Shown: piece after piece, positions 901-12,518 of the stretch
Numbering within the stretch: position 1 is the stretch's first letter
How the letters are laid out: each line of letters opens with the position of its first letter
Assembly: GCA_034440375.1 (NCBI GenBank)
Contig: JAWXBZ010000005.1
Span: 1-12,936, forward strand
Length of the DNA: 12,936 nt
Direction: 5' to 3'
From: Candidatus Eiseniibacteriota bacterium
Lineage (GTDB): Bacteria; Eisenbacteria; RBG-16-71-46; JABDJR01; JAWXBZ01
Program-made: the position numbers and the translations under genes
Notes under the pieces: generated by a model
The model's database searches: none
Told to the model about the DNA's origin: nothing
The model's input: only the letters and a program-made list of their open reading frames with translations

Positions 901-3759
901 ATGGCCTTTCCCGCGCGCCGATTCGTGCTCGCAGCGCTGGCCCTGGCCGCCTTTGCTCTCCTCGCCCCATCGAAGGCAACCGCCCAGGCCATCTCCTTCG
1001 GCAAGAACAAAATCCGGTACGACAACTTCGAATGGCGCGTGCGGGAGAGTGACCACTTCGACCTCTACTACTACCCCCAGGAGGAGTCGTTGGCGGTCAT
1101 TGCGCTGGCACAGGCCGAGAAGTCGTATGTCGAGCTTTCGGTGCGATGGGGTTTCGCGGTCGAGCGGCGGATCCCGTTCATCATCTACGCGAGTCACCAG
1201 GCCTTTGAGCAGACGAACATCACGCCGGGATTTCTGCCCGAGGGAGTGGCCGGCTTTACCGAGTTCCTGAAGGGGCGCATGGTCGTTCCCTTCAACGGCT
1301 CGGTGTCCGATTTCCGTGGCACCATCCACCATGAGCTGGTCCATGTGTACCAGCTGGCCAAGGGTGAAAGCGTCTTTGGCCGCCACTATCGCGGGCGCCC
1401 GGCCGGTGCGCCGCTCTGGCTGACCGAGGGGCAGGCGGATCTCTGGGCCGGTGATTGGGATGGCATCGGGGAGATGGTTCTGCGCGACCTGGTGCTGGCC
1501 AACCAGCTGCCGTCCATTCCCGACCTGTGGCGATTTTACGGTTCGTTCACCATCTACAAGGTGGGTCAGGACCTCTGCGGCTACATGGAACGGGAGTACG
1601 GCCGCGATGTCATTCCGCGCATCTACGAAAATCTCTGGAAGGCCGAAACATTCAGCCAGGCGCTGGTAATGACCCTTGGCGTCAACGAGGTGGATCTGTC
1701 CGAACGGTGGCACCGCGATCTCAAGTTGCGATACTACCCCGGCATCGAGGATGCCAGATCGCCCACGCTCGATGCCCGGCCCCTTGCCGCGGACAGCGGA
1801 CCCAGCTTCAAGCCCTGCATCGTGCCGAACGCCGAGGGGCTGCCGCCGAATCGCTTCCTCTACATGTCGCCGCGGACGGGCTACTCGAGCATCTACATGG
1901 CCTCATTGAACGGCCCCGAGCAGGAAACGGAGACGATCATCGCCGGGGAGAGCAATGCCCAGTACGAGGCGCTTCATCCGTTCCGCAGCCGGATCGATGT
2001 GACGCCCGCGGGCCGACTGGCTTTCATTTCGAAGTATCACGAGCGGGATGCCCTCTATTTCTATGATCTGAAGGCGCGCAAGGAGTCGGCCCGTTATCAA
2101 TTTGAGGGGCTGGTTGGGCTTCTGTCACCGACACAGAGCCATGACGGGCGGGTCGTGGCCTTCTCGGGTCTGTCTATCGACGGCCGCTCGGACCTGTATC
2201 TCTTTTACGTCGACGACAACCGGCTGGAGCGGATCACCTACGACTGGTATCAGGACCTGGACCCCAGCATCAGCCCCGATGGCCGGCATGTGGCCTTTTC
2301 ATCCGACAGGACACCGACCGGCCATGCCGGTGATCGCAACCTGTTTCTCTATGATCGGCTGACCGGCAAGATCCGCGCCCTGACCCGTGGGGCCCACGTG
2401 GATGGAACACCCGACTGGTCAACCCGTGGCGACCGCATCGCCTTCTCGAGCGACCGACACGGTACGCCGCAAATCCACATCACCGATCTGGCCGGCCACA
2501 CCATCCGCGTCACCGCCATGCAGGGCGGTGCCTTCGATCCCGTCTGGCTGGAAAACGACACCGGCCTTCTCATCACGGTCTATCACCGTTTGCGTTACGG
2601 AATTTACCGACTCGACAATCCGGAAGCATTGGACAGTCCGGTCCTCACGACGGGGCCGCTGGCCGTCGATCTCTCGCCCGAGATGGAGCGCGCCGACACG
2701 CTGGCTGCCAGACCGTGGCGCCTCGAGGATGACCTGGTCCTGCCGCCTGGCCGGGATGCCCCGTACGTTCGGCGCTACGCCTTCGATCTGGCCCAGGCCG
2801 GCGTGGCACTCGACCCGAGCCTTGGTTACGGCGAGGGGATCCAGGCATCGCTCTCCGATCAGATTTCCGATCGACTGATCTTCTTTCAGTTTTCAAACTC
2901 GGCCTCGACCACCAACGAGATCTTTTCCCGGACGAACCTGTCGGTCAACTATTTCAACCTGTCGAATCGGTTTCGCACCGGCTACGGTTTTTACCATGTG
3001 GCCGGCGATTACATCGACGAACTGAACGCCCGCTACTTCGAACGGCGGGCGGGGGTGGATTTGATCGGCAGTTATGCCTTTTCCAAGTTCAACCGGATCG
3101 ATGCGTCGCTCTTCCTGTTCCACTCGGAAAGGACCGACGATTCGTTTCGCGAGGCCCGCAAGGCTCTGCTGGCCTCGAATTATGTCTCGTTGGTGCATGA
3201 CAACACGCTCTGGCTTGAGACGGGGCCGATTGCCGGCTCTCGCTGGAACCTGACTGCCGGCGTTTCCACTGATCTGGAGCGCGCATCGATCGAAAACACC
3301 GCACTCCTGGTCGACTGGCGTAATTATTACCGGCTCGGCCTCCGAACGGCCTATGCCGTCCGCTTCCAGGGGCGCGTCTCGGAGGGAAGCGGTGCCCAGC
3401 GCTTCACCCTCGGCGGCTCATACTCCTTGCGCGGTTTCCCGCGGCGATCACTCTTCGGCACCCGCTCGTTGCTGCTCAACCAGGAGGTTCGCTTTCCGCT
3501 GCTCGACGGGGTTGTCCTGCGATTCCCGTTCGGGGGCGTCGGCCTGCCGGGAGTGCAGGGAGCCATCTTTGGCGATGTTGGGCAGGCGTGGGAAAAGGAG
3601 GAGGGGTTCTTTCCGGATCCCTTCGGGAGCTTCGGACTGGGGCTTCGTTCCAGTTTCGGTGGATTCCTGATTCTCCGCCTTGATTTCGTCCGCACGACCG
3701 ATTTCAAGAAAGTGTCGGGCACCACCGATGTCGTGTTCTTCATCGGGACGAATTACTGA
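901..3759 (+). CDS. Omp85/BamA-TamA family outer-membrane protein with N-terminal peptidase MA-like (HExxH) domain and PD40/TolB-like beta-propeller (~952 aa)
   Basis: Sec signal from ATG 901 (MAFPARRFVLAALALAAFALLAPSKATAQ). HELVH at 1330-1344 plus downstream WLTEG. PD40-like repeats (PTQSHDGRVVAFS, PSISPDGRHVAFSSDR, PDWSTRGDRIAFSSDR). Omp85 loop motif GGSYSLRGF, FGDVGQAW, SFGLGLR, and C-terminal beta-signal VVFFIGTNY. Start 901 is preferred over 163 because the signal peptide begins there; no clear SD. Confidence 0.88.
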   Translation: MAFPARRFVLAALALAAFALLAPSKATAQAISFGKNKIRYDNFEWRVRESDHFDLYYYPQEESLAVIALAQAEKSYVELSVRWGFAVERRIPFIIYASHQAFEQTNITPGFLPEGVAGFTEFLKGRMVVPFNGSVSDFRGTIHHELVHVYQLAKGESVFGRHYRGRPAGAPLWLTEGQADLWAGDWDGIGEMVLRDLVLANQLPSIPDLWRFYGSFTIYKVGQDLCGYMEREYGRDVIPRIYENLWKAETFSQALVMTLGVNEVDLSERWHRDLKLRYYPGIEDARSPTLDARPLAADSGPSFKPCIVPNAEGLPPNRFLYMSPRTGYSSIYMASLNGPEQETETIIAGESNAQYEALHPFRSRIDVTPAGRLAFISKYHERDALYFYDLKARKESARYQFEGLVGLLSPTQSHDGRVVAFSGLSIDGRSDLYLFYVDDNRLERITYDWYQDLDPSISPDGRHVAFSSDRTPTGHAGDRNLFLYDRLTGKIRALTRGAHVDGTPDWSTRGDRIAFSSDRHGTPQIHITDLAGHTIRVTAMQGGAFDPVWLENDTGLLITVYHRLRYGIYRLDNPEALDSPVLTTGPLAVDLSPEMERADTLAARPWRLEDDLVLPPGRDAPYVRRYAFDLAQAGVALDPSLGYGEGIQASLSDQISDRLIFFQFSNSASTTNEIFSRTNLSVNYFNLSNRFRTGYGFYHVAGDYIDELNARYFERRAGVDLIGSYAFSKFNRIDASLFLFHSERTDDSFREARKALLASNYVSLVHDNTLWLETGPIAGSRWNLTAGVSTDLERASIENTALLVDWRNYYRLGLRTAYAVRFQGRVSEGSGAQRFTLGGSYSLRGFPRRSLFGTRSLLLNQEVRFPLLDGVVLRFPFGGVGLPGVQGAIFGDVGQAWEKEEGFFPDPFGSFGLGLRSSFGGFLILRLDFVRTTDFKKVSGTTDVVFFIGTNY

Positions 3760-4904
3760 TGCGGGCGACACCACAGATGTGGGTGATCCCGCCGACGCTG
3801 CTCGCAACATGGACCAGGCTGACGCGTTGCGGGGCGTCTCTGACCTTCCTGCTGTTCGCACTCGCCGGCTGTGGTACCCGCACGCGCGGTGAGGCCATCA
3901 AGCCGCCGGATGACTTGACCGGGGTACCGCCAACCATCGTCTGGACGGCCGACGCCGGACGCGGCATTGATGTCACGCCGACCCGGGCTGGCGAGAATCT
4001 GCTGGTGGCGACGACGGATCGTCAATTCCAACTGTTCCGGATCGATTCGGGCAAACGCGAATGGAAGAAGCGTCTCGATGGCAGTCTCGTCGGTCGCGCG
4101 TTCGTCATCGGTGCGATGGCCTTTGCCGCCACATCACTTCCGGACGGTGCGGTGTACGGCTTTGATCTCGCCCGCAAGAAGATTCACTGGCGGGTGACGG
4201 TCGGCGAGCCGGTGGGGGATCCGATCTTCTTCGAGGGGGCCGTCCTGGTCGGTACGCAGGAAGGAACGGTGTACGGACTTTCGCCGACCGACGGTCGGAC
4301 CATCTGGGTGACCAGCATCGAGAATCATGTATGGGGCTCCTCCTGGTTCGATTCAAGCCGGGCCATTTTCGTGATGCCGGGGCGAAAGGGGCGGCTGGCA
4401 GCCATTGATGGCCGGAGCGGCGAGCGCCGCTGGACAGTCGAACTCGGCCAGCCGCTGGGGGCCGCCTCCGGGGACACCACCCGACTGCTCGTGGTCGCCG
4501 GCGATTCGACGTTGATATCATTGAATCCCGTCAACGGCAATCGATTCTGGATGCGGACGCTCGACTTCCCGTTGCTGGCGGCGGCCACGCCGATCGGCGA
4601 TCGCATAGTCGTGGCCGGCGTGGACGGCCACCTCGCGGGACTCGACGCCTCAACCGGTGAAACAAGATGGTCGCTGCGGCTGGGGGGGCCCTTCGTCTCG
4701 CCGCCGGCGGTCGAGGGCTCGATGATCATGATTGGATCGCCGTCGGGACTCGTCTGGCGGCTGGATTCGGTTTCAGGCGAGGTGCGCGGCCTCTTTCGGC
4801 ACGGCGAACCGGTCCTCGTCACCCCCGCCGTCGTGGATGGCCTCTGGATCGTGGCCGGCGAGCGCGGACTCCTGGCGGCCTGTCGCTGGGAGGCGTCACG
4901 ATGA
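3759..4904 (+). CDS. PQQ-like beta-propeller lipoprotein, BamB-like
   Basis: Repeated Trp-docking motifs (IDSGKREWK, PTDGRTIWV, DGRSGERRWT, NPVNGNRFWM, DASTGETRWS). Hydrophobic stretch and lipobox LAGC (Cys codon 3870-3872). Start overlaps the upstream stop (TGATG, 3757-3761); ATG 3777 is an alternative start. Confidence 0.85.
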   Translation: MRATPQMWVIPPTLLATWTRLTRCGASLTFLLFALAGCGTRTRGEAIKPPDDLTGVPPTIVWTADAGRGIDVTPTRAGENLLVATTDRQFQLFRIDSGKREWKKRLDGSLVGRAFVIGAMAFAATSLPDGAVYGFDLARKKIHWRVTVGEPVGDPIFFEGAVLVGTQEGTVYGLSPTDGRTIWVTSIENHVWGSSWFDSSRAIFVMPGRKGRLAAIDGRSGERRWTVELGQPLGAASGDTTRLLVVAGDSTLISLNPVNGNRFWMRTLDFPLLAAATPIGDRIVVAGVDGHLAGLDASTGETRWSLRLGGPFVSPPAVEGSMIMIGSPSGLVWRLDSVSGEVRGLFRHGEPVLVTPAVVDGLWIVAGERGLLAACRWEASR

Positions 4905-5887
4905 GACGGGCGGTGGCGGCATGGCTCCTCGCGCTCACTCTCTGGTCGTCGTTGTCACCACCGCTCGCCCTGGCGGCGGAGAGCGGCTGGCTCCGACTCC
5001 TGGTGCACCAGCCCGGCCTCATCGACATGGATGGGGAAGAGTTTCTGGATCTGACCGGGCGAAACGGTCGGCGGCCCGTGCCCTGGACGTCCTTCACCGT
5101 TTCGGTCATGGCCGTGGCCGCCGGGGAACATCGACTCGAACTCCGCCCGGCAGATGTCACGGCCGTGCCGCCGTGGGAGACGATCGATGTGTCGGTGGCC
5201 GCGGGCGAAACGCTGACGGTTCGCCTCGGTGCCCCGCTGATACTGACCTCGCCGAGCGGCGCCCGAATTCTGATCGATGGGGAGGAAATTGGCGCCGCGC
5301 CGGTAAGGATCAATCCGACGCGGCTTCCGGGTCGGAAACTGCTGGTTGAGCTTCCCGGTTACCAGCGCCGAACGCTGGAGGGGGATTCGTTGCTCGACCT
5401 GGCGCGGGTGGCCGGCGGGGCCCGCCTCGAACTGGAGCCGTTGACCGAGGGGAAGGCCGGAGTCCTGACGATGCCGCGGCCGACGGGCTGGATCGGCCGT
5501 CATGAAACGCTGGCACTGGTTGGCTCCGCCACGCTCCTCGCGGGGGGCGTTGCCGCCGGGATTCATTTCAAGAACCGCGCCGATGATTACTACGAACAGT
5601 ATCAGCGGACCGGAAACCAGGACGAACAGGAGCGGCTCTTCGACCGGGCACAACAGAATGATCGGCTGTCGCTTATCGGGTGGGGCGTGGGCGAGCTCGC
5701 TTTCTTCGCCACCTTCTTCCTGCTCATTCACGAATCAAAGCGCCCGCTGGTCCCGAACCCGACGGCGCCCATCGATGAGGTTGCCGGGAACGGATCGGGT
5801 GGCTCCGGTCGCACCTTGGCCGGCCTCGCTCCGATGGCACCCGACGGCACGCCCGGCGTCACGCTGCGGATCTCTCATGGATTCTAG
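4901..5887 (+). CDS. PEGA-domain exported or membrane protein (~328 aa)
   Basis: ATG 4901 with SD GGGAGG and ATGA overlap with the upstream stop. Signal peptide MRRAVAAWLLALTLWSSLSPPLALA. PEGA motif LTSPSGARILIDGEEIGAAP...LPGY. Two C-terminal hydrophobic helices flank a charged helix; the protein ends in Phe. Confidence 0.8.
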   Translation: MRRAVAAWLLALTLWSSLSPPLALAAESGWLRLLVHQPGLIDMDGEEFLDLTGRNGRRPVPWTSFTVSVMAVAAGEHRLELRPADVTAVPPWETIDVSVAAGETLTVRLGAPLILTSPSGARILIDGEEIGAAPVRINPTRLPGRKLLVELPGYQRRTLEGDSLLDLARVAGGARLELEPLTEGKAGVLTMPRPTGWIGRHETLALVGSATLLAGGVAAGIHFKNRADDYYEQYQRTGNQDEQERLFDRAQQNDRLSLIGWGVGELAFFATFFLLIHESKRPLVPNPTAPIDEVAGNGSGGSGRTLAGLAPMAPDGTPGVTLRISHGF

Positions 5888-7253
5888 GGTGGCGCGGTGG
5901 TGCCGGGCGTTATGGGTCGGTCGCGCCCCTGCGGTTGTCGGCGGCCCCCATCGGCTCGGCGGCCCCCATCGGCTCGGCGGCCTCCATCGGCTTGCTGGCA
6001 TCGCCATCGTCCTGTTTGCCGGCTGCTCCTCACGCGATCACCTGAACCCGTTCGATCCCGAAAATCCCCTGACGCGGGGCGAGCCGTCACTGGTGACGGC
6101 GGCGGCCGGGGATGGGCTCGTCGATCTTGCCTGGACACTCCCCGAGTTTGACGACCTTGCAGCGGTTCGCCTGCTGCGGACCGACGAGGGAGACACCAAC
6201 CTGGTACTGCCGGTGGATGTTCTGTTCGCAGGAGGCGAGTGGCGCGACAGTACCGTGACGAATGATCGCACTTATTCTTATGTGCTCGAATTCGACTTCC
6301 AGGGGGAAGCCGTGTCCCGCCGCAGCGCCGGGGCTCCGGCGACGCCGGGGCGCGCGGTGATCTGGCTCCTGGACCAGTCGGGCGGGGGGCCGCTTCGAAT
6401 TTCGCCGGATGGCCGGGCCGTGGCCGACCGACCGGGGCAGGGCCGACCGACCGACATGAGTCTGAATCCGATCACCGGCGCGGTGGTGAGCGTCGATTTC
6501 ATCAACCGTCGTGTGGAGCGATTCGATCGGATGGGGGGGGCCGGTGCGGTCCTCGAACTCGGTTCCAACCCGATCAGCGTGGCCATCGCTGAACCGTCCG
6601 ACAGCGTCTGGGTCGGCACCGCGAATCCGTCCGAAATCCGACTCTGGGATCCCGACCTGACGGTGGCCACCAACGTCGACACGGGCTTCGGCGATCCGGA
6701 AGATCTAGCCTTCGATCCGGCGCGCGGCGCACTCTGGATCGCCGACTCCAGGGGGGGACGACTGTTTCACCGGCGCGCGTCGGGCGAGGTGACCGTGATC
6801 GGTGGATTCATCCTTCCCATTTCCGTGGCCATCGATCGGGCTACGGGTGATGCGTTCCTGATCGATCGGGCGCGTCGCTCGCTCTTCCGCGTGGATGCAC
6901 TCGCTGACACGGTGATCTGGACTCGTGCCGGCTTCGGCGGCCTGTACCAGGCGCTGGCCGATCCCATTCGCGGGGGTGTGTGGGTCAGCGACAACCTGGC
7001 TGGAACCATCACGCGCGTGGACGGCACCGGAGCCGTCGTGCGGCTCATCAGCGGGTGGGCCGCACCAACCGGCCTCGCCCTTGATCCCGGGAGTGGTGAT
7101 CTCTGGGTGACCGATGCCAGCCTGGGTCAATTGATCCGTATCCGGGAGTCAGGACAGGTGCTTCAGCGCCTTCGGGGCTTCAGCGGCCCCTTCGCGGTTG
7201 CCGTAACGACTCCAGCGACGGACTCATCAGTGCGGACGCACGGAAATCCTTGA
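5877..7253 (+). CDS. Lipoprotein with FN3-like domain and NHL/SMP-30/Vgb-type beta-propeller (~458 aa)
   Basis: ATG 5877 overlaps the PEGA gene end by 11 nt. Lipobox FAGC (Cys codon 6024-6026) is followed by RDHLNPFDPENP. FN3-like VTAAAGDGLVDLAW...WRDSTVTNDRTYSY. NHL-like repeats PEDLAFDPARGALWIAD, PISVAID, PTGLALDPGSGDLWVTD. Confidence 0.8.
   Translation: MDSRVARWCRALWVGRAPAVVGGPHRLGGPHRLGGLHRLAGIAIVLFAGCSSRDHLNPFDPENPLTRGEPSLVTAAAGDGLVDLAWTLPEFDDLAAVRLLRTDEGDTNLVLPVDVLFAGGEWRDSTVTNDRTYSYVLEFDFQGEAVSRRSAGAPATPGRAVIWLLDQSGGGPLRISPDGRAVADRPGQGRPTDMSLNPITGAVVSVDFINRRVERFDRMGGAGAVLELGSNPISVAIAEPSDSVWVGTANPSEIRLWDPDLTVATNVDTGFGDPEDLAFDPARGALWIADSRGGRLFHRRASGEVTVIGGFILPISVAIDRATGDAFLIDRARRSLFRVDALADTVIWTRAGFGGLYQALADPIRGGVWVSDNLAGTITRVDGTGAVVRLISGWAAPTGLALDPGSGDLWVTDASLGQLIRIRESGQVLQRLRGFSGPFAVAVTTPATDSSVRTHGNP
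5938..5991 (+). repeat. In-frame 3 x 18-bp tandem repeat (TCGGCGGCCCCCATCGGC) encoding GG(P/L)HRL x3
   Basis: Copies at 5938-5955 and 5956-5973 are identical; the copy at 5974-5991 has one mismatch. Confidence 0.95.
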
Positions 7254-7313: not shown

Positions 7314-9032
7314 GTGCGAGTCCAGGGGTTCGAGCGGGAGTGGGTCATGGCCCCGTCTCCGCCTGCCATCGATGCGGACTCCATCACCCGATCGTTCGAC
7401 TTGCCGAAAGTCGGAGCCGGGATGCTCCTCCGTAGAGGTCTGACCACCGAAGCCGACATCAATCAATACTTCGATCCCCGCCTCAAATCCCTGCGCGACC
7501 CGTTCCAACTTCCCGACATGCCCGCCGCCGTTGAACGCGCCTGGCTCGCCATCGACCGCAAGGAATCAATCCTCATCCACGGTGACTACGACGTGGACGG
7601 AATGGTCGGCACCGCCTACCTGGTTCGGATGCTCGCCGCGATGGGGGCAAAGACCAGCTACTTCCTGCCGGATCGGGTCCGGGACGGCTATGGCATCGGC
7701 CCGGCCGGCCTCGCCGCCGCTCTCGAGCGGGGCGCCCGCCTCATCATTTGCGTCGATTGCGGCGTCACCGCAGTCGAGGCAGCCCTGGCCGCTCGTTGTG
7801 CCGACATCGATCTCATCATCCTCGACCATCACCAGCCCCCGACCACTCTGCCCGTGGCCGTGGCGGTTGTCGACGCCCTTCGCATCGACGCGACCTATCC
7901 CTTCCAGGGACTGTGCGGCGTCGGCGTGGCGGCCAAGTTCATCCAGGCGATGGCCATGTCGCGGCCGGGGAAGCTCGATCCCGCCGTGTACGTGGAGGCG
8001 CTCCAGCTCGTGGCGCTCGGCACGATTGCCGATGTCGTGCCGCTGCTCGACGAGAACCGAACCTTCGTGATGCACGGATTGAAGGCGCTGGCCCGATCCA
8101 GGTATCCGGGTGTGGCGGCGCTGGCTGGCCTCGCCCGCCTGTCGGGGGCGACCATCACGGCCGAGCAGGTGGCCTACCAGCTGGCGCCCCGGCTCAATGC
8201 GGCCGGCCGGATGGGCGTGCCCTCGCTTGGGGTCGAACTGCTGCTGGCCACGAACCCGGAGCGGGGTGAGTTCCTGGCGCGTGAACTCGACAGTCTCAAT
8301 TTGCGTCGTCGCGAATCGGATCAGTCGGTCACGCAGTCCGCGCGGGCCATGGTCATGGCCACGCCCACGCCTCCTCCGTTCCTGGTGCTCTGGTCCGAAG
8401 ACTGGCCGGCCGGAGTCATCGGCATTGCGGCCGCCCGCGTGGCCGAAGAATTTCGCCGCCCCACTCTGTTGATCAGCATGAACGGTGCCATTGGTCGCGG
8501 CTCGGCCCGCTCGTACGCCGGCCTTGACGTGGGGCAGGCCTTTGCCCGGGCGGGCGACCTCCTGGTGGCTCACGGCGGCCATCGCCAGGCGGCCGGCCTG
8601 TCGGTTCATCGCGATAATCTCGAGCAACTCCGTGAGCGACTGATCATCATGGCCATGGAGGAGCCGGGCGAACCGGGTCTTCTGCCCCTGTCACTCGAAG
8701 CGGAGCTCGAGCCGGCTCTTGTCGATGCGTCCCTGATGACGTTCCTGGACCGGCTGGCACCATTTGGTGCCGGCACTCCCGAACCGCTCTTTCTGCTGCG
8801 CGGACTGCAACTGCTCCAGCCCCCCCGGATTGTCGGCACCGACCACCTGAAACTCACCGTGTCGGCCGGCGGCCGTCCCATGGGCGCCATCGGCTTCGGA
8901 CTCGGCCGCCACGCCGGCGCCATTCGACAGGCGGGTGGTCCGATCGCACTGGCGGCCACGCCCGCCCCGGACGAATGGAAGGGGGGCGGCGCCATTCAGC
9001 TCAAGTTCCGCGATGCGAGGGTGGACGAATGA
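7314..9032 (+). CDS. recJ: Single-stranded-DNA-specific exonuclease RecJ
   Basis: DHH-family motifs GDYDVDG, VDCG, LDHH, LVALGTIADV, PRLNAAGR, GSARS, GGH, and LAPFG...HLKL in the C-terminal region. GTG start with SD GGAGG. Confidence 0.97.
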   Translation: MRVQGFEREWVMAPSPPAIDADSITRSFDLPKVGAGMLLRRGLTTEADINQYFDPRLKSLRDPFQLPDMPAAVERAWLAIDRKESILIHGDYDVDGMVGTAYLVRMLAAMGAKTSYFLPDRVRDGYGIGPAGLAAALERGARLIICVDCGVTAVEAALAARCADIDLIILDHHQPPTTLPVAVAVVDALRIDATYPFQGLCGVGVAAKFIQAMAMSRPGKLDPAVYVEALQLVALGTIADVVPLLDENRTFVMHGLKALARSRYPGVAALAGLARLSGATITAEQVAYQLAPRLNAAGRMGVPSLGVELLLATNPERGEFLARELDSLNLRRRESDQSVTQSARAMVMATPTPPPFLVLWSEDWPAGVIGIAAARVAEEFRRPTLLISMNGAIGRGSARSYAGLDVGQAFARAGDLLVAHGGHRQAAGLSVHRDNLEQLRERLIIMAMEEPGEPGLLPLSLEAELEPALVDASLMTFLDRLAPFGAGTPEPLFLLRGLQLLQPPRIVGTDHLKLTVSAGGRPMGAIGFGLGRHAGAIRQAGGPIALAATPAPDEWKGGGAIQLKFRDARVDE

Positions 9033-11230
9033 GCCTCCCGCCCGGCCAGGCCGACCTCATCCACGACGGACTTCAGGAGATGATCGAGGCGCGGGGACTC
9101 GACGTCGATCGGGCCGCGCTTCGTCAGGCCTTCGACTTTTCGTACAACGCCCACGGCAAGCAACTGCGCGCCTCGGGCGAGCCGTACATGGTTCATCCGG
9201 TGGAGGTGGTCAAGATCCTGATCGAGCTCCTCGATCGCAGGGTCGACACCACGCTGCTCGGGGCCGCGCTCTTGCACGATGTGGTTGAGGACACGAAGAT
9301 TTCGATCGAGGAGATCGAAAGCGCGTTCGGACCGGAGATCGCCCACCTGGTCGACGGAGTGACCAAGATCACCGGCTTCGAATTCGCCAACACAGAGTCG
9401 GAACAGGCCGAGAACTTTCGCAAGATGCTGATGTCGATGGCCCGCGACATCCGCGTCATCCTGATCAAGCTGGGTGACCGGTTGCACAACATGCGCACGC
9501 TTGACTATCTTGCCCCCGAAAAGGCGCAGCGGATCGCCCGGGAGACCCAGGAGATTTACGCGCCGCTGGCGCACCGCCTGGGAATCGGGACAATCAAGTG
9601 GGAGCTCGAGGACCTGTCGTTCAAGCATCTCAATCGAACGTCCTACAAGGAACTGGTTGACCAGGTGGCCATGAGCCGGGCCGAGCGCGAGCGCCTGATC
9701 CTGGCCGTTCAAACGCCGATCATGCGCGACCTGGGGACCCAGGGGATCCGGGCCGAAATTTCCGGCAGGCCCAAGCACCTGTATTCGATTCACCGCAAGA
9801 TGGTCAGCCAGTCGCGGCCGTTCAGCGAGATATTCGATCTCCTCGGCGTCCGGGTGATCGTGCCGAAGAAGGCTGATTGCTACCGGGTGCTGGGGGTGCT
9901 CCATGATCTGTTCACGCCGGTGCACGAGCGGTTCAAGGATTACATCGCCACGCCCAAGGGGAACATGTACCAGTCCCTGCATACGACGGTCATCGGCCCC
10001 GAACACAAGATGGTCGAGATCCAGATCCGCACAAATGACATGCACAAGACGGCCGAGCTCGGCATCGCCGCGCATTACTCCTACAAGGAGGGGCATGGCC
10101 CGGACGCCGAGCTCGACCAGAAGCTGGGCAGTCTCTTCGGCGATGCCGGATTCTGGAGTGGCGACACGTCCGGCGATCCCGGTGAGTTCCTGGATTTCCT
10201 CAAGACCTCGCTGTACCAGGAAGAGGTCTTCGTGTTCACGCCGAAGGGGGAGCTCAAGCACCTTCCCAAGGGTTCGACGCCGCTTGATTTGGCCTACCAG
10301 ATCCACACCGACATCGGAAACAAGACCGTCGGCGCGCGCGTCGGCGGGAAGATCGTCAGCCTGAAGTACGAACTGAAGAACGGCGATTCGGTGCAGATCA
10401 TCACGTCCCCCAGCGCCCATCCGACGGACGAGTGGCTGTCGATCGTCAAGTCGAGCCGCGCCCGGCAAAAGGTGCGGCGCTGGCTCACCGAGCAGCGAAT
10501 GGAGCACTCGGTCAATCTCGGCCGCGACATGCTCGAGCGGGAGGGTCGGCGATTTCACAAGAAATTGCCCGGGGTCAGGGAAATGATTGATACGGCCCAG
10601 TCGTTCGGTTTTCCCGATGTCGAGCGGCTGCTCCGTTCGGTGGGTGAGGGGCATACCGGCGCGCATAACGTGTTGACACGGATCTATCCCGAGATCATCC
10701 AGAGGCGGGATGCGCCGACACCGCTGGAGAAGATTCGTGATTTCGCGGTCGGTGGCGGAAAGGGAATCCGGATCCAGGACGTGGGAAACCTGATGATCGT
10801 CTTTGCCCGTTGTTGCCAGCCGGTACCCGGGGATCAGGTCATCGGCGTGGTCACGCGGGGCCGCGGCCTTTCGGTTCATCGAATTGATTGCCCGAACGGC
10901 TTCGAGGACAAGGTCGGCAAGGATCGACGGACGGAGCTGAACTGGGATGTCAGCGAGGAGAAGGCATTCATCGTCAAGCTGATCATCCACGGCGACGACC
11001 GCCAGAGTTTTCTGGCCGACGTGGCCAACGCCGTCAGCGGCACCAAGACCAACATCAAGAATGCCGACATCAAATCAGTCGATGGCGAAGCCCTCGGCAT
11101 CTTCCTCATCGAGGTGAAAAACCTGGCCCATCTACAACGCGTTATCAAGGCCATCCGCAACATCCGAGGCGTCACCAGCGTCGAGCGGCACCAGGTGCTC
11201 GGCGAGGACGAGGGCGAGACGCGGCACTGA
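9029..11230 (+). CDS. relA: Bifunctional (p)ppGpp synthetase/hydrolase, long RSH (Rel/SpoT)
   Basis: Intact HD hydrolase motifs ([28 protein letters not shown]). Synthetase [19 protein letters not shown] and EIQIRT. TGS (VFVFTPKG), ZFD (CCQPVPGD...HRIDC) and C-terminal ACT. ATG 9029 overlaps the recJ stop (ATGA). Confidence 0.96.
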
Positions 11231-11274
11231 TGCGAGTGTCAGCGCCGATGCAACATCAGATTTTGGCAGCCTGA
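11230..11274 (+). other. 14-codon mini-[17 protein letters not shown] linking the rel stop and the dtd start
   Basis: ATG 11230-11232 overlaps the rel TGA, and TGA 11272-11274 overlaps the dtd ATG. Flanked by a CTGATGCG direct repeat. Translation is unproven. Confidence 0.35.
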
Positions 11275-12518
11275 TGCGCGCCCTGATTCAACGGGTCGCG
11301 CGGGCTTCCGTGACGGCCGGCGATCACCACGCCGCGATCGGTCCCGGCCTCCTGATTTTCCTGGGCGTTCGCCGCGGCGACACGGTCGCGGATGCGGTCT
11401 GGCTGGCGAAAAAGTGTGCCGGCCTGCGCATCTTCGAAGATGACGCCGGCAGGATGAACCGCGGCCTGCTCGAGATCGATGGCGAGGCACTGGTCGTCTC
11501 ACAGTTCACGCTGTACGGCGATGCCGATCGTGGTCGTCGGCCGTCGTTTGTCCTGGCGGCGCCGCCCGAGGAAGCGAATCGGCTCTACGAGGAGTTCGTC
11601 ATCGCACTCCGCGCGGAGGGGGTGCGCCAGGTGGGCACCGGTGTTTTTCAGGCGATGATGAGCGTCGAGCTGGTCAATGATGGGCCGGTGACAGTGATGG
11701 TGGAGTCTCGGCCCGGAATGAGTACCTCGAGTTGGCAAGGCCCGGCGGGCGGAGCCGCAGTGACCGCCGGGTGCGGCGATTCGGCCGCACAGGACTCGGT
11801 CCAGGCCGAGCTCGGTGGACCTGTGAGCGACACAGATACCAGAAACCCGGCCCAGGCCGGGTCAGCCGGATTGTTCGCGGCCGAATCGGCGCGGACCGCG
11901 CTGGCACGTCATCTGCTGTCCTGCCCGGACCCACTGGTGCTGGCCTCCGCATCACCGCGCCGGACAGAGATCCTGGCGCGGGCAGGAATTTCCCATATCA
12001 CGGCGCCAGTGCACGCCGATGAATCGACGCCCCCGGACCAGCCCCCCCTCATGGCCGCCGGGACGATCGCGCGTCGCAAGGCCATGGCCGCGGCGTCAAC
12101 GTGGGTCGGGCGGTGGATTCTGGCTGCCGATACCATTGTTGACTCGGCCGGCCAGGCGTTCGGCAAGCCGGTCGATGACGACGATGCCCGGGCCATGCTG
12201 GGGCAGCTCTCCGGTCGAGAGCATTGGGTGCACACCGGCCTGGCGCTGGTCTCGCCTGGCGGCGTTCTTTTCTCGGGGGTCGAGTCAACCCGCGTCATCT
12301 TCAGAGATCTCATGCCGGAGGAGATCGAACACTACGTCCGGTCCGGCGAGCCGCGTGACAAGGCCGGCGCCTACGCCATCCAGGGGATCGGCGGACTCCT
12401 CATCGAACGGATCAACGGTTCATACGATAATGTGGTGGGCCTGCCGCTGAACCAACTCCTGGCCCTTTTTCGTGAGGCGCTGGGGCAGGGGGTAGCGAGG
12501 CCTGTTGAAGACGGCTAG
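11274..12518 (+). CDS. dtd: Fusion of D-aminoacyl-tRNA deacylase (aa 1-145), a ~74-aa linker, and Maf/YhdE-type dTTP/UTP pyrophosphatase (aa ~220-414)
   Basis: Dtd motifs [32 protein letters not shown]. Maf motifs [40 protein letters not shown]. One continuous frame with no stop between the domains. Confidence 0.9.

Follow-up and report, generated by a model that had tools for sequence, protein, structure and literature searches.

The subject of this analysis is a 12,936-bp contig (JAWXBZ010000005.1, G000:C5; hereafter the window) of a Candidatus Eiseniibacteriota genome, which carries four overlapping genes for exported proteins, numbered 1 to 4 here. They encode a peptidase-propeller-Omp85 barrel protein, a BamB-like propeller lipoprotein, a protein with a PEGA domain and a hydrophobic hairpin, and an NHL-propeller lipoprotein. 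That the four genes form a functionally linked envelope module parallel to the β-barrel assembly machinery (BAM) is well supported by sequence comparison, because the gene order recurs across phyla, the genes lie side by side as single copies, they remain adjacent through an inversion, and genes 2 and 3 are fused in some lineages. We propose, with a probability of roughly 0.5, that the four genes represent the complete form of an envelope module that is passed on vertically and centres on a POTRA-less Omp85 barrel, and which would act as a protease station for the processing or quality control of proteins of the envelope.

The window is a complete contig of a 3.96-Mb metagenome-assembled genome (93.7% complete), and its sizeable genes all lie on the forward strand. 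An earlier sequence-only reading of this DNA had described the four genes as joined by TGATG, ATGA and an 11-nucleotide (nt) overlap, and direct inspection revealed the same junctions. Genes 1 and 2 have one base in common (TGA at 3757-3759 and ATG at 3759-3761), the ATG of gene 3 (4901-4903) overlaps the TGA of gene 2 (4902-4904), and the ATG of gene 4 at 5877 lies 11 nt inside gene 3, the TAG of which occupies 5885-5887. Gene 4 has an alternative start, an in-frame GTG at 5889, and the genes are packed without a spacer with either start. The export signals claimed for all four products were also seen as leaders or lipoboxes when judged by sequence reading and hydropathy. In general, the assignments of peptidase, propeller, Omp85, PQQ, PEGA and NHL domains found support in Pfam/NCBIfam matches and, for gene 1, in an AlphaFold2 model compared by Foldseek.

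A pattern search based on the gene 1 alignment yielded 80 loci, a single one for each species, with as much as 10 kb of flank per side. All of them come from metagenome-assembled genomes of at least seven named phylum-level groups, labelled by their depositors as Eisenbacteria, Latescibacterota, Gemmatimonadota, Zixibacteria, Ignavibacteria, Handelsmanbacteria, GN15, Glassbacteria and others, and related genomes among them are not independent. Flanking frames, defined from stop to stop with at least 70 codons and heuristic starts, were searched with profiles iterated from genes 2-4. Fifteen of the 80 loci have less than 1.2 kb of downstream sequence and are untestable for gene 2. Gene 2 directly adjoins gene 1 at 49 of the 65 testable loci and is not adjacent at the other 16. 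It lies downstream on the same strand in 38 cases and is convergent in 11, all labelled Gemmatimonadota. The same TGATG junction is found at 12 of the 38 same-strand loci, and at 30 of them the candidate start of gene 2, picked by rule, falls -12 to +5 nt from the stop of gene 1.

Genes 3 and 4 are both present at 32 of the 56 loci with at least 3.5 kb of downstream sequence. Same-strand gene 2 accompanies them at 24 of these 32, one locus has the whole block inverted, and seven have no gene 2. Gene 3 alone was found twice among the 56, gene 4 alone never, and neither of them at 22. The upstream side, which served as a control (52 loci with at least 5 kb), contained no gene 2-like frame, no gene 3-like frame and four NHL-like frames. 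When the flanking frames were clustered all against all, only the families of genes 2, 3 and 4 recurred across phyla; the other neighbours of gene 1 are lineage-specific housekeeping genes (in one group dapF, yicC, cmk, coaBC, udg and dnaB), with a HEAT-repeat protein in another group. Since the arrangement recurs in many phyla, it is more than chance. The sequence-only reading had stated that its proposal would fall if the neighbours of the Omp85 gene were not conserved; they are in fact kept beside it across phyla.

We also built a FastTree tree of 76 full-length copies of gene 1, with SH-like support only and with the 12 of 80 primary copies that are cut by contig ends excluded. It separates an Eisenbacteria-only second copy, including one on contig C125 of the source genome, from a main clade. 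The branching of the main clade tracks the taxon labels, and every type of arrangement has its own clade. Gene 1 with gene 2 is the form of Zixibacteria and Ignavibacteria, and the four genes stand together in Latescibacterota, some Gemmatimonadota and a part of Eisenbacteria. In an Eisenbacteria clade without gene 2 (loci L025, L027, L030, L032, L036, L038 and L040), a second copy of gene 1 lies just past gene 4, on the same strand and ~3-4 kb downstream of the first. A HEAT-repeat protein of ~750 amino acids (aa) is encoded just upstream of gene 1 at L062 (1771-4017) and at 13 other Zixibacteria, Ignavibacteria and GN15 loci, in these lineages only.

Within the phylum, the survey covered 61 genomes, each at least 90% complete, including the source genome and the unpublished genome G020. 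The gene 1 family is present in all 61, usually in at least two copies. The profile of the gene 3 hairpin gave a single strong match per genome in 55 of them, and in 54 of these 55 the match lies within 4.1 kb of the high-scoring gene 1 copy on the same contig. The exception, G035, is a contig break: the hairpin stands at a contig end next to one half of gene 4, whose other half lies by gene 1 on another contig. Gene 4 has one match in 53 genomes, which together with the two pieces in G035 makes 54, always in the cluster; in one further genome the cluster runs off a contig end. One family has genes 4 and 3 turned round as a block with respect to gene 1, still adjacent to it. Gene 1 together with genes 3 and 4 is thus constant in this phylum. 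The six genomes without genes 3 and 4 represent three genera and include a single-contig genome; their gene 1 matches are only of the lower-scoring pattern seen in the second copies of sister genomes. Full-length orthologues of gene 2 occur in 17 of the 61 genomes, and the remaining matches cover the model partially or lie within larger PQQ proteins. Because these orthologues are always situated between genes 1 and 3, gene 2 appears to belong to this module and not to canonical BAM.

The gene 3 protein has an N-terminal hydrophobic leader ending in ALAAE and is a member of the PEGA family (28.6 bits, PF08308 cut-off 20.8). Its C-terminal part contains two hydrophobic stretches, residues 203-221 and 258-276 (hydropathy 1.75 and 1.94 in 19-residue windows), which flank a polar segment. 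An alignment of the orthologues has only ~80 residues in common: a hydrophobic helix rich in small residues, a polar AD..Y..Y...(F/L)D.A.RYDR segment and a second hydrophobic helix. As PEGA is absent from short orthologues, the conserved core of gene 3 is the hairpin and not PEGA. No Pfam family is shared by the 32 hairpin proteins scanned; a lead from a language-model Atlas, DUF5683, was rejected, as none of the 32 matches it or any other shared family.

A search of 1.84 billion cluster representatives with the hairpin profile gave 1,400 matches at E<=0.001, 564 of them at E<=1e-10. All 150 representatives listed have the hairpin at the C-terminus and share one invariant Tyr and one invariant Asp, and one position of the second helix is Glu in 118 and Gln in 31 (149/150 together). 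A polar residue of this kind within a putative membrane helix is unusual. We scanned 23 of the 150, picked by length, against Pfam. All five proteins of at least 380 aa have a PQQ_2 propeller, and two of these combine PQQ_2, PEGA and the hairpin; PEGA is present in 11 of 13 proteins of 295-372 aa, and all five proteins of 157-237 aa are without any Pfam family. Signal-peptide-like leaders were recognized on seven of the eight shorter forms that were read (91-226 aa). Additionally, at three loci (L047-L049) a BamB-like domain and the C-terminal part of gene 3, without PEGA, form one uninterrupted frame. These fusions have signal-peptide-like leaders and no standard lipobox (one has a weak LAVC), so that in the fusion lineages the hairpin stands in place of the lipid anchor of the BamB-like domain. 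Given that both the hairpin proteins and the fusions start with such leaders, the partner domains are probably periplasmic.

Gene 1 begins with an export signal (a hydrophobic stretch at residues 8-26 followed by ATA/QA). The frame is open upstream as far as a GTG at 163, but homologues begin at the signal peptide. The homologues of gene 1 number over 1,300 and appear in their sources as 'BamA/TamA family outer membrane protein' or 'PD40 domain-containing protein', and the nearest of them (82-87% identity) are labelled Candidatus Eisenbacteria. Many carry PF01103; PF26549 and PF26550 are precomputed on homologues. The protein itself matches PD40 (37.6 bits) and ShlB (PF03865, 22.9 bits, cut-off 22.7; 25.1 bits for the barrel alone), and, under the cut-offs, TolB (TIGR02800, 103.9 bits), Peptidase_MA_2 (22 bits) and Omp85_fam (29.3 bits). 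An AlphaFold2 model from an alignment of 16 homologues (39-65% identity) has a pLDDT of 79.2 and a pTM of 0.75. It consists of an alpha/beta-plus-helical domain (~42-290), a propeller (293-571) and long antiparallel strands (618-950). Compared with PDB structures by Foldseek, it finds TolB first (E 1.5e-10) and then BamA/TamA barrels (E ~3e-8 to 1e-7). The agreement of the model and the Foldseek results backs the weak sequence calls.

The N-terminal domain has an HExxH motif and a downstream Glu, and H144, E145, H148 and E176 are invariant both in 16 sequences and in 30 that include second-copy paralogues. Modelled alone from the 30 sequences (pLDDT 83.4), the domain is closest in Foldseek to M9 collagenase peptidase domains (7zoc, E 6e-6, TMq 0.58), followed by M1 aminopeptidases and an M30 peptidase. 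A search of PDB sequences with the profile reached collagenase at E 0.0055 (19 bits), aligned over HExxH and WxxEGxAEY, and a search with the single sequence gave no match there. The motif with its downstream Glu and the predicted fold, matching M9, M1 and M30, are those of gluzincins (clan MA(E)), and we propose from sequence and model that the peptidase is a catalytically intact gluzincin. Membership of the M9 collagenases themselves was rejected, as the profile match is marginal and no collagenase Pfam family matches. Neither is gene 1 a TolB: the TIGR02800 score is well below the 343-bit cut-off and concerns the propeller part only, and the N-terminal TolA-binding domain was not found.

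Between propeller and barrel, where Omp85 proteins usually have POTRA domains, the model has a linker without secondary structure (pLDDT <50 over 578-604), and no POTRA family matched gene 1 in Pfam at E 0.01. This agrees with the non-POTRA subfamilies in the parts of PMC4104836 that we consulted. The predicted barrel has Foldseek TM values of 0.55-0.59, normalised to BamA barrel-only chains. It contains LRGF at 843-846 and FGDVG at 890-894, with R844 and D892 invariant and F890 and G894 conserved in at least 90% of the 16 sequences. We take these motifs to be two Omp85 superfamily signatures, (V/I)RG(F/Y) of loop 6 and (F/G)xDxG of strand 13. With a predicted BamA-type C-terminal barrel and both signatures, gene 1 falls within the Omp85/TpsB superfamily; as modelled, it is a POTRA-less Omp85 barrel with a peptidase and a TolB-like propeller.

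Gene 2 belongs to the PQQ_2 superfamily (113 bits, cut-off 27.6). Its best NCBIfam match is BamB (TIGR03300), and we rejected it as a BamB equivalog, since it scores 127.8 bits and the cut-off is 285.2. The lipobox is present in many orthologues; many of those from Gemmatimonadota have a leader peptide only and no lipobox. As for gene 4, the sequence-only reading had called it an FN3/NHL lipoprotein. The NHL propeller following the lipobox is supported by Pfam (32.8 bits), but FN3 is not confirmed, as residues 51-178 gave no Pfam match even at E 10. A look-alike cluster named 'Fibronectin type-III' in the language-model Atlas (score 0.90) is a lead, not a finding. Just past the lipid-anchored cysteine, R53, N57, P58 and D60 are invariant among the aligned orthologues, and this R-x3-N-P-x-D(-P) motif could, to judge from the alignment, be a docking peptide or a sorting signal. 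The long n-region of gene 4 includes an 18-bp unit repeated 3.1 times (97% matches, 5938-5992), which encodes GGPHRL-like repeats.

The source genome has a canonical bamA of its own. A whole-genome search with TIGR03303 (cut-off 297 bits) produced five matches: one on C140 (a full-length BamA, 452 bits, above the cut-off), one on C109, two stretches on C100 and one on C125. The separate bamA that the sequence-only reading had suggested looking for is thus present on C140, and gene 1, which is absent among the five, was rejected as a BamA. The matches on C109 and C100 are further Omp85 genes, and the one on C125 is a paralogue of gene 1 (34% identity, G000:C125:24424-27723, reverse strand, PF01103 at 41 bits). 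No gene in the source genome attains the cut-off for BamB. Apart from gene 2, a single PQQ_2 gene of some size is present, which encodes a 636-aa protein beside secA on C103; other TolB-like propeller genes are also present, for example on C75. The C125 paralogue overlaps the start of a GT-C/PMT_2 glycosyltransferase gene, and two further frames beyond it read, from sequence only, as a heptosyltransferase and GmhB. Similar heptosyltransferase/GmhB-like frames lie 1-2 kb upstream of gene 1 at 4 of the 80 loci, and these positions may loosely link the gene 1 family to lipopolysaccharide core genes.

BAM consists of BamA and the lipoproteins BamB-E, and BamB binds the POTRA domains of BamA. The cluster resembles it in that an Omp85 barrel with the loop 6 RG[F/Y] and the [F/G]xDxG motifs is encoded alongside a BamB-like lipoprotein with a propeller and further partners that are exported. 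It differs in having neither POTRA domains nor a BamD-like gene, in its built-in peptidase, in its NHL lipoprotein and hairpin-protein partners, and in that gene 1, unlike the gene on C140, does not match the BamA model. In TAM (translocation and assembly module), TamA carries three POTRA domains, and TamB, a beta-rich protein of very large size, is held by an anchor in the inner membrane. Should the hairpin span that membrane, the cluster would be similar to TAM as a second Omp85 beside BamA with an inner-membrane-anchored partner, but it encodes nothing like TamB or the POTRA domains of TamA. TolB of the Tol-Pal system is the best structural match of the gene 1 propeller, from which gene 1 differs by the missing N-terminal domain and by a score far under the equivalog cut-off. 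BepA, a periplasmic metalloprotease working with BAM in Escherichia coli, offers a likeness as a zinc protease engaged in quality control at the site of barrel assembly. It differs as a soluble M48 peptidase with TPR repeats that is not fused to a barrel, and no sequence or fold relation appeared in our results, which include no search for BepA.

The design of gene 1 is not new. The passages that we consulted of Heinz & Lithgow 2014 (PMC4104836) describe a 'WD40-like' Omp85 subfamily with a TolB-like propeller, likened there to a BamA-BamB fusion. For this group the supplement, as far as consulted, tabulates PF07676 + PF01103 architectures, a TolB hit and a 'best aminopeptidase hit', so that the three-domain design was already on record in 2014. 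Both the subfamily and gene 1 combine a PD40/TolB-like propeller with an Omp85 barrel and are POTRA-less; on these features and its aminopeptidase-like domain, gene 1 can be regarded as a member. The consulted passages treat the protein alone and mention no partner genes, conserved cluster or function; what is new here is the conserved partner set. PlpD, a type Vd protein, likewise has an N-terminal enzyme domain on a 16-stranded Omp85-type barrel, and differs by its patatin lipase domain, its POTRA and its lack of conserved partner genes (PMC4104836 for part of this). The main text of PMC12611786 on the Bacteroidota BAM, seen in part, has no mention of propeller, peptidase, BamB or PEGA. Within the collection of papers that it covered, our literature search found none giving partners or a function for propeller-bearing Omp85 proteins.

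In the reading that we favour, gene 1 would be seated in the outer membrane with its gluzincin peptidase, capped by the TolB-like propeller, on the periplasmic side. Gene 3 (the hairpin, here with PEGA) and gene 4 would be its constant partners in this phylum, and gene 2 would be an optional adaptor, fused to the gene 3 hairpin in some lineages. The propellers would serve as scaffolds for docking and substrate capture and the peptidase would trim or degrade unfolded envelope proteins at the outer membrane, so that the module would process envelope proteins or control their quality beside canonical BAM, not as BAM. The N-terminal domains of Omp85 proteins are periplasmic by default; for this reason, and because the partners follow signal peptides and the hairpin can replace a lipid tether, we favour a station that faces the periplasm. 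Processing or quality control is proposed because the propeller-plus-peptidase design recalls enzymes of this kind that admit unfolded chains only. What was computed comprises gene order and coupling, conservation, single-copy adjacency, fusions, predicted folds, and the conserved catalytic and Omp85 motifs; from these we infer the physical assembly of the products, the periplasmic orientation of the peptidase, the membrane location of the hairpin and the class of substrate.

Several observations weigh against the reading just set out. Most genomes of the phylum have no full-length orthologue of gene 2, and none was found in two genomes with the gene 1-3-4 arrangement, one of which is a complete chromosome. 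Neither gene 3 nor gene 4 was seen next to gene 1 in Zixibacteria, Ignavibacteria and a large part of Gemmatimonadota, and 5 of the 56 loci have no partner nearby. Two Gemmatimonadota genomes without an adjacent partner have a full-length BamB-like gene ~0.5 Mb away. The joint absence of gene 1 of the main type and of genes 3 and 4 from six genomes lends weak support, since one assembly gap removes adjacent genes together. A strongly basic stretch precedes the first hydrophobic helix of the hairpin; this is at odds with a simple hairpin in the inner membrane that follows a signal peptide and makes the topology ambiguous, and the helices may not span the inner membrane. The orientation of the peptidase and propeller relative to the barrel is not readable from the predicted model. 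Judged by gene content, there is no single fixed complex across lineages. The sequence-only reading had proposed one envelope unit of four genes parallel to BAM. The linked module survives, with conserved neighbours, a separate bamA and fusions in its favour, but the fixed set of four does not, as most of the phylum lacks gene 2, and Zixibacteria and Ignavibacteria lack genes 3 and 4.

The differing make-up of the cluster from one lineage to the next, together with the unlinked BamB-like gene in two genomes, would fit genes that are co-regulated in the same envelope process and whose products act separately or transiently, without a stable complex. We consider this unlikely, because genes 2 and 3 are fused in several lineages and gene 3 stays as a single copy beside gene 1 in 54 of 55 genomes, even after the inversion of the block. 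Gene 2 might also simply be the BamB of this organism, serving the canonical BamA, with its position by gene 1 incidental; its best NCBIfam match is indeed BamB, and the genome has no other PQQ_2 lipoprotein of BamB size, since the PQQ_2 protein on C103 has 636 aa. This is the least probable explanation, given a score of less than half the BamB cut-off, full-length orthologues in only 17 of 61 genomes and all within the cluster, adjacency to gene 1 in seven named phylum-level groups, and fusion to the gene 3 hairpin elsewhere.

Two other explanations assign the module to a different place in the envelope. In a type V-like surface display, the barrel would export its own peptidase and propeller for the digestion of external proteins, with genes 2 and 4 as substrate-binding surface lipoproteins. 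The peptidase fold, nearest to secreted M9 collagenases, and the 45-residue unstructured linker before the barrel would suit such a role, PlpD provides a precedent with an exported patatin domain (PMC4104836, in the part consulted), and surface lipoproteins are common in related phyla. What makes it improbable is that gene 1 has no POTRA, a feature of type Vd; that gene 2 has no lipobox in many Gemmatimonadota; that fusions of a BamB-like domain with the hairpin behind a signal peptide fit the periplasm and not the surface; and that gene 1 occurs in 61 of 61 genomes of the phylum and stands among housekeeping genes, unlike typical nutrient-acquisition loci. An envelope-spanning tether or remodelling device, nearer to Tol-Pal or TAM than to BAM, would place the hairpin in the inner membrane, the barrel in the outer one and the propellers as a bridge, with the peptidase acting on peptidoglycan-linked or tethering proteins during growth or division. 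The TolB-like propeller of gene 1 is consistent with it, as are the two hydrophobic helices of gene 3 with Glu or Gln within the second in 149 of 150 representatives among the matches listed, and the exchange of the lipid anchor of the BamB-like domain for a hairpin in fusion lineages. Yet gene 1 lacks the N-terminal domain of TolB and reaches 103.9 of the 343 bits required, we know of no cell-wall hydrolases among gluzincins of this fold, the topology of the hairpin is ambiguous, and no hairpin gene lies beside gene 1 in Zixibacteria and Ignavibacteria. We give this device a similarly low chance.

The coordinates of the four genes, of their domains and motifs, and of the neighbouring genes are collected in the table. 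The neighbours downstream, from recJ to mtnA, were considered as a part of the module and rejected, as their synteny with it is found at only 3 of the 80 loci; 60 nt separate gene 4 from recJ. The longest relA/spoT frame begins 58 nt before recJ ends (8975-9032); the family models match it only from residue 30-52, so the true start is probably later. The next frame unites, within 414 codons (11274-12518), a D-Tyr-tRNA deacylase (residues 1-145) and Maf (219-401). In the nearest relatives, dtd and maf are two overlapping frames (for example 19303-20151 and 20129-20845 at L020), and the single frame in the window is either a real fusion or an assembly frame error. Positions 1-900 contain no recognisable gene, RNA family or tRNA, and the open reading frames there have no Pfam match. 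Rfam and tRNA scans of the whole window gave no match, a promoter scan gave no sites, and a terminator scan gave seven, which is uninformative against 5.1 +/- 2.1 expected.

Table. Positions of the genes, predicted domains and motifs in the window.
Feature	Position (nt)	Strand	Residues and description
Gene 1	901-3759	+	Peptidase-propeller-Omp85 barrel protein, exported, 952 aa
Predicted peptidase domain (gene 1)	1024-1770	+	~Residues 42-290
HExxH motif (gene 1)	1330-1344	+	Residues 144-148; putative third zinc ligand Glu176 at 1426-1428
Predicted TolB/PD40-like beta-propeller (gene 1)	1777-2613	+	~Residues 293-571; PD40 and TIGR02800 matches, strand pattern of the model
Low-confidence linker (gene 1)	2614-2751	+	~Residues 572-617; usual position of POTRA in Omp85 proteins
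Predicted Omp85-type beta-barrel (gene 1)	2752-3756	+	~Residues 618-952; C-terminal ...GTNY
Gene 2	3759-4904	+	BamB-like (PQQ_2) propeller lipoprotein, 381 aa
Lipobox cysteine of LAGC (gene 2)	3870-3872	+	Cys38
Gene 3	4901-5887	+	Exported PEGA and hairpin protein, 328 aa
PEGA domain (gene 3)	5240-5365	+	Residues 114-155
Hairpin module (gene 3)	5507-5728	+	Residues 203-276; C-terminal
Gene 4	5877-7253	+	NHL-propeller lipoprotein, 458 aa
Lipobox cysteine of FAGC (gene 4)	6024-6026	+	Cys50; after an unusually long n-region
R-x3-N-P-x-D-P motif (gene 4)	6033-6059	+	Just after the lipid-anchored Cys
recJ	7314-9032	+	
relA/spoT	8975-11230	+	
dtd-maf fusion frame	11274-12518	+	
mtnA start	from 12505	+	

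Proteins of the Omp85 type build or cross bacterial, mitochondrial and chloroplast outer membranes, and to our knowledge partners and mechanisms have so far been defined only for BAM, TAM, two-partner secretion and type Vd secretion. A bolder form of our proposal, which we regard as doubtful, is that the module is an envelope-spanning second Omp85 machine, armed with a protease, with its barrel in the outer membrane, a hairpin with a conserved buried acidic residue in the inner one, and up to three propellers, and that it carries out an essential BAM-independent step of biogenesis or editing in Eisenbacteria, Latescibacterota, Gemmatimonadota and their relatives. If true, such a machine would be a new class beside BAM and TAM, with its own defined partners. 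The propeller-bearing Omp85 subfamily, an orphan since 2014, gains a concrete list of conserved partners: a lipoprotein resembling BamB, an NHL lipoprotein whose N-terminal peptide is conserved, and a previously unnamed hairpin module with at least 1,400 cluster representatives. If the protease acts at the outer membrane, these bacteria would have a built-in step of quality control or maturation that model Proteobacteria lack.

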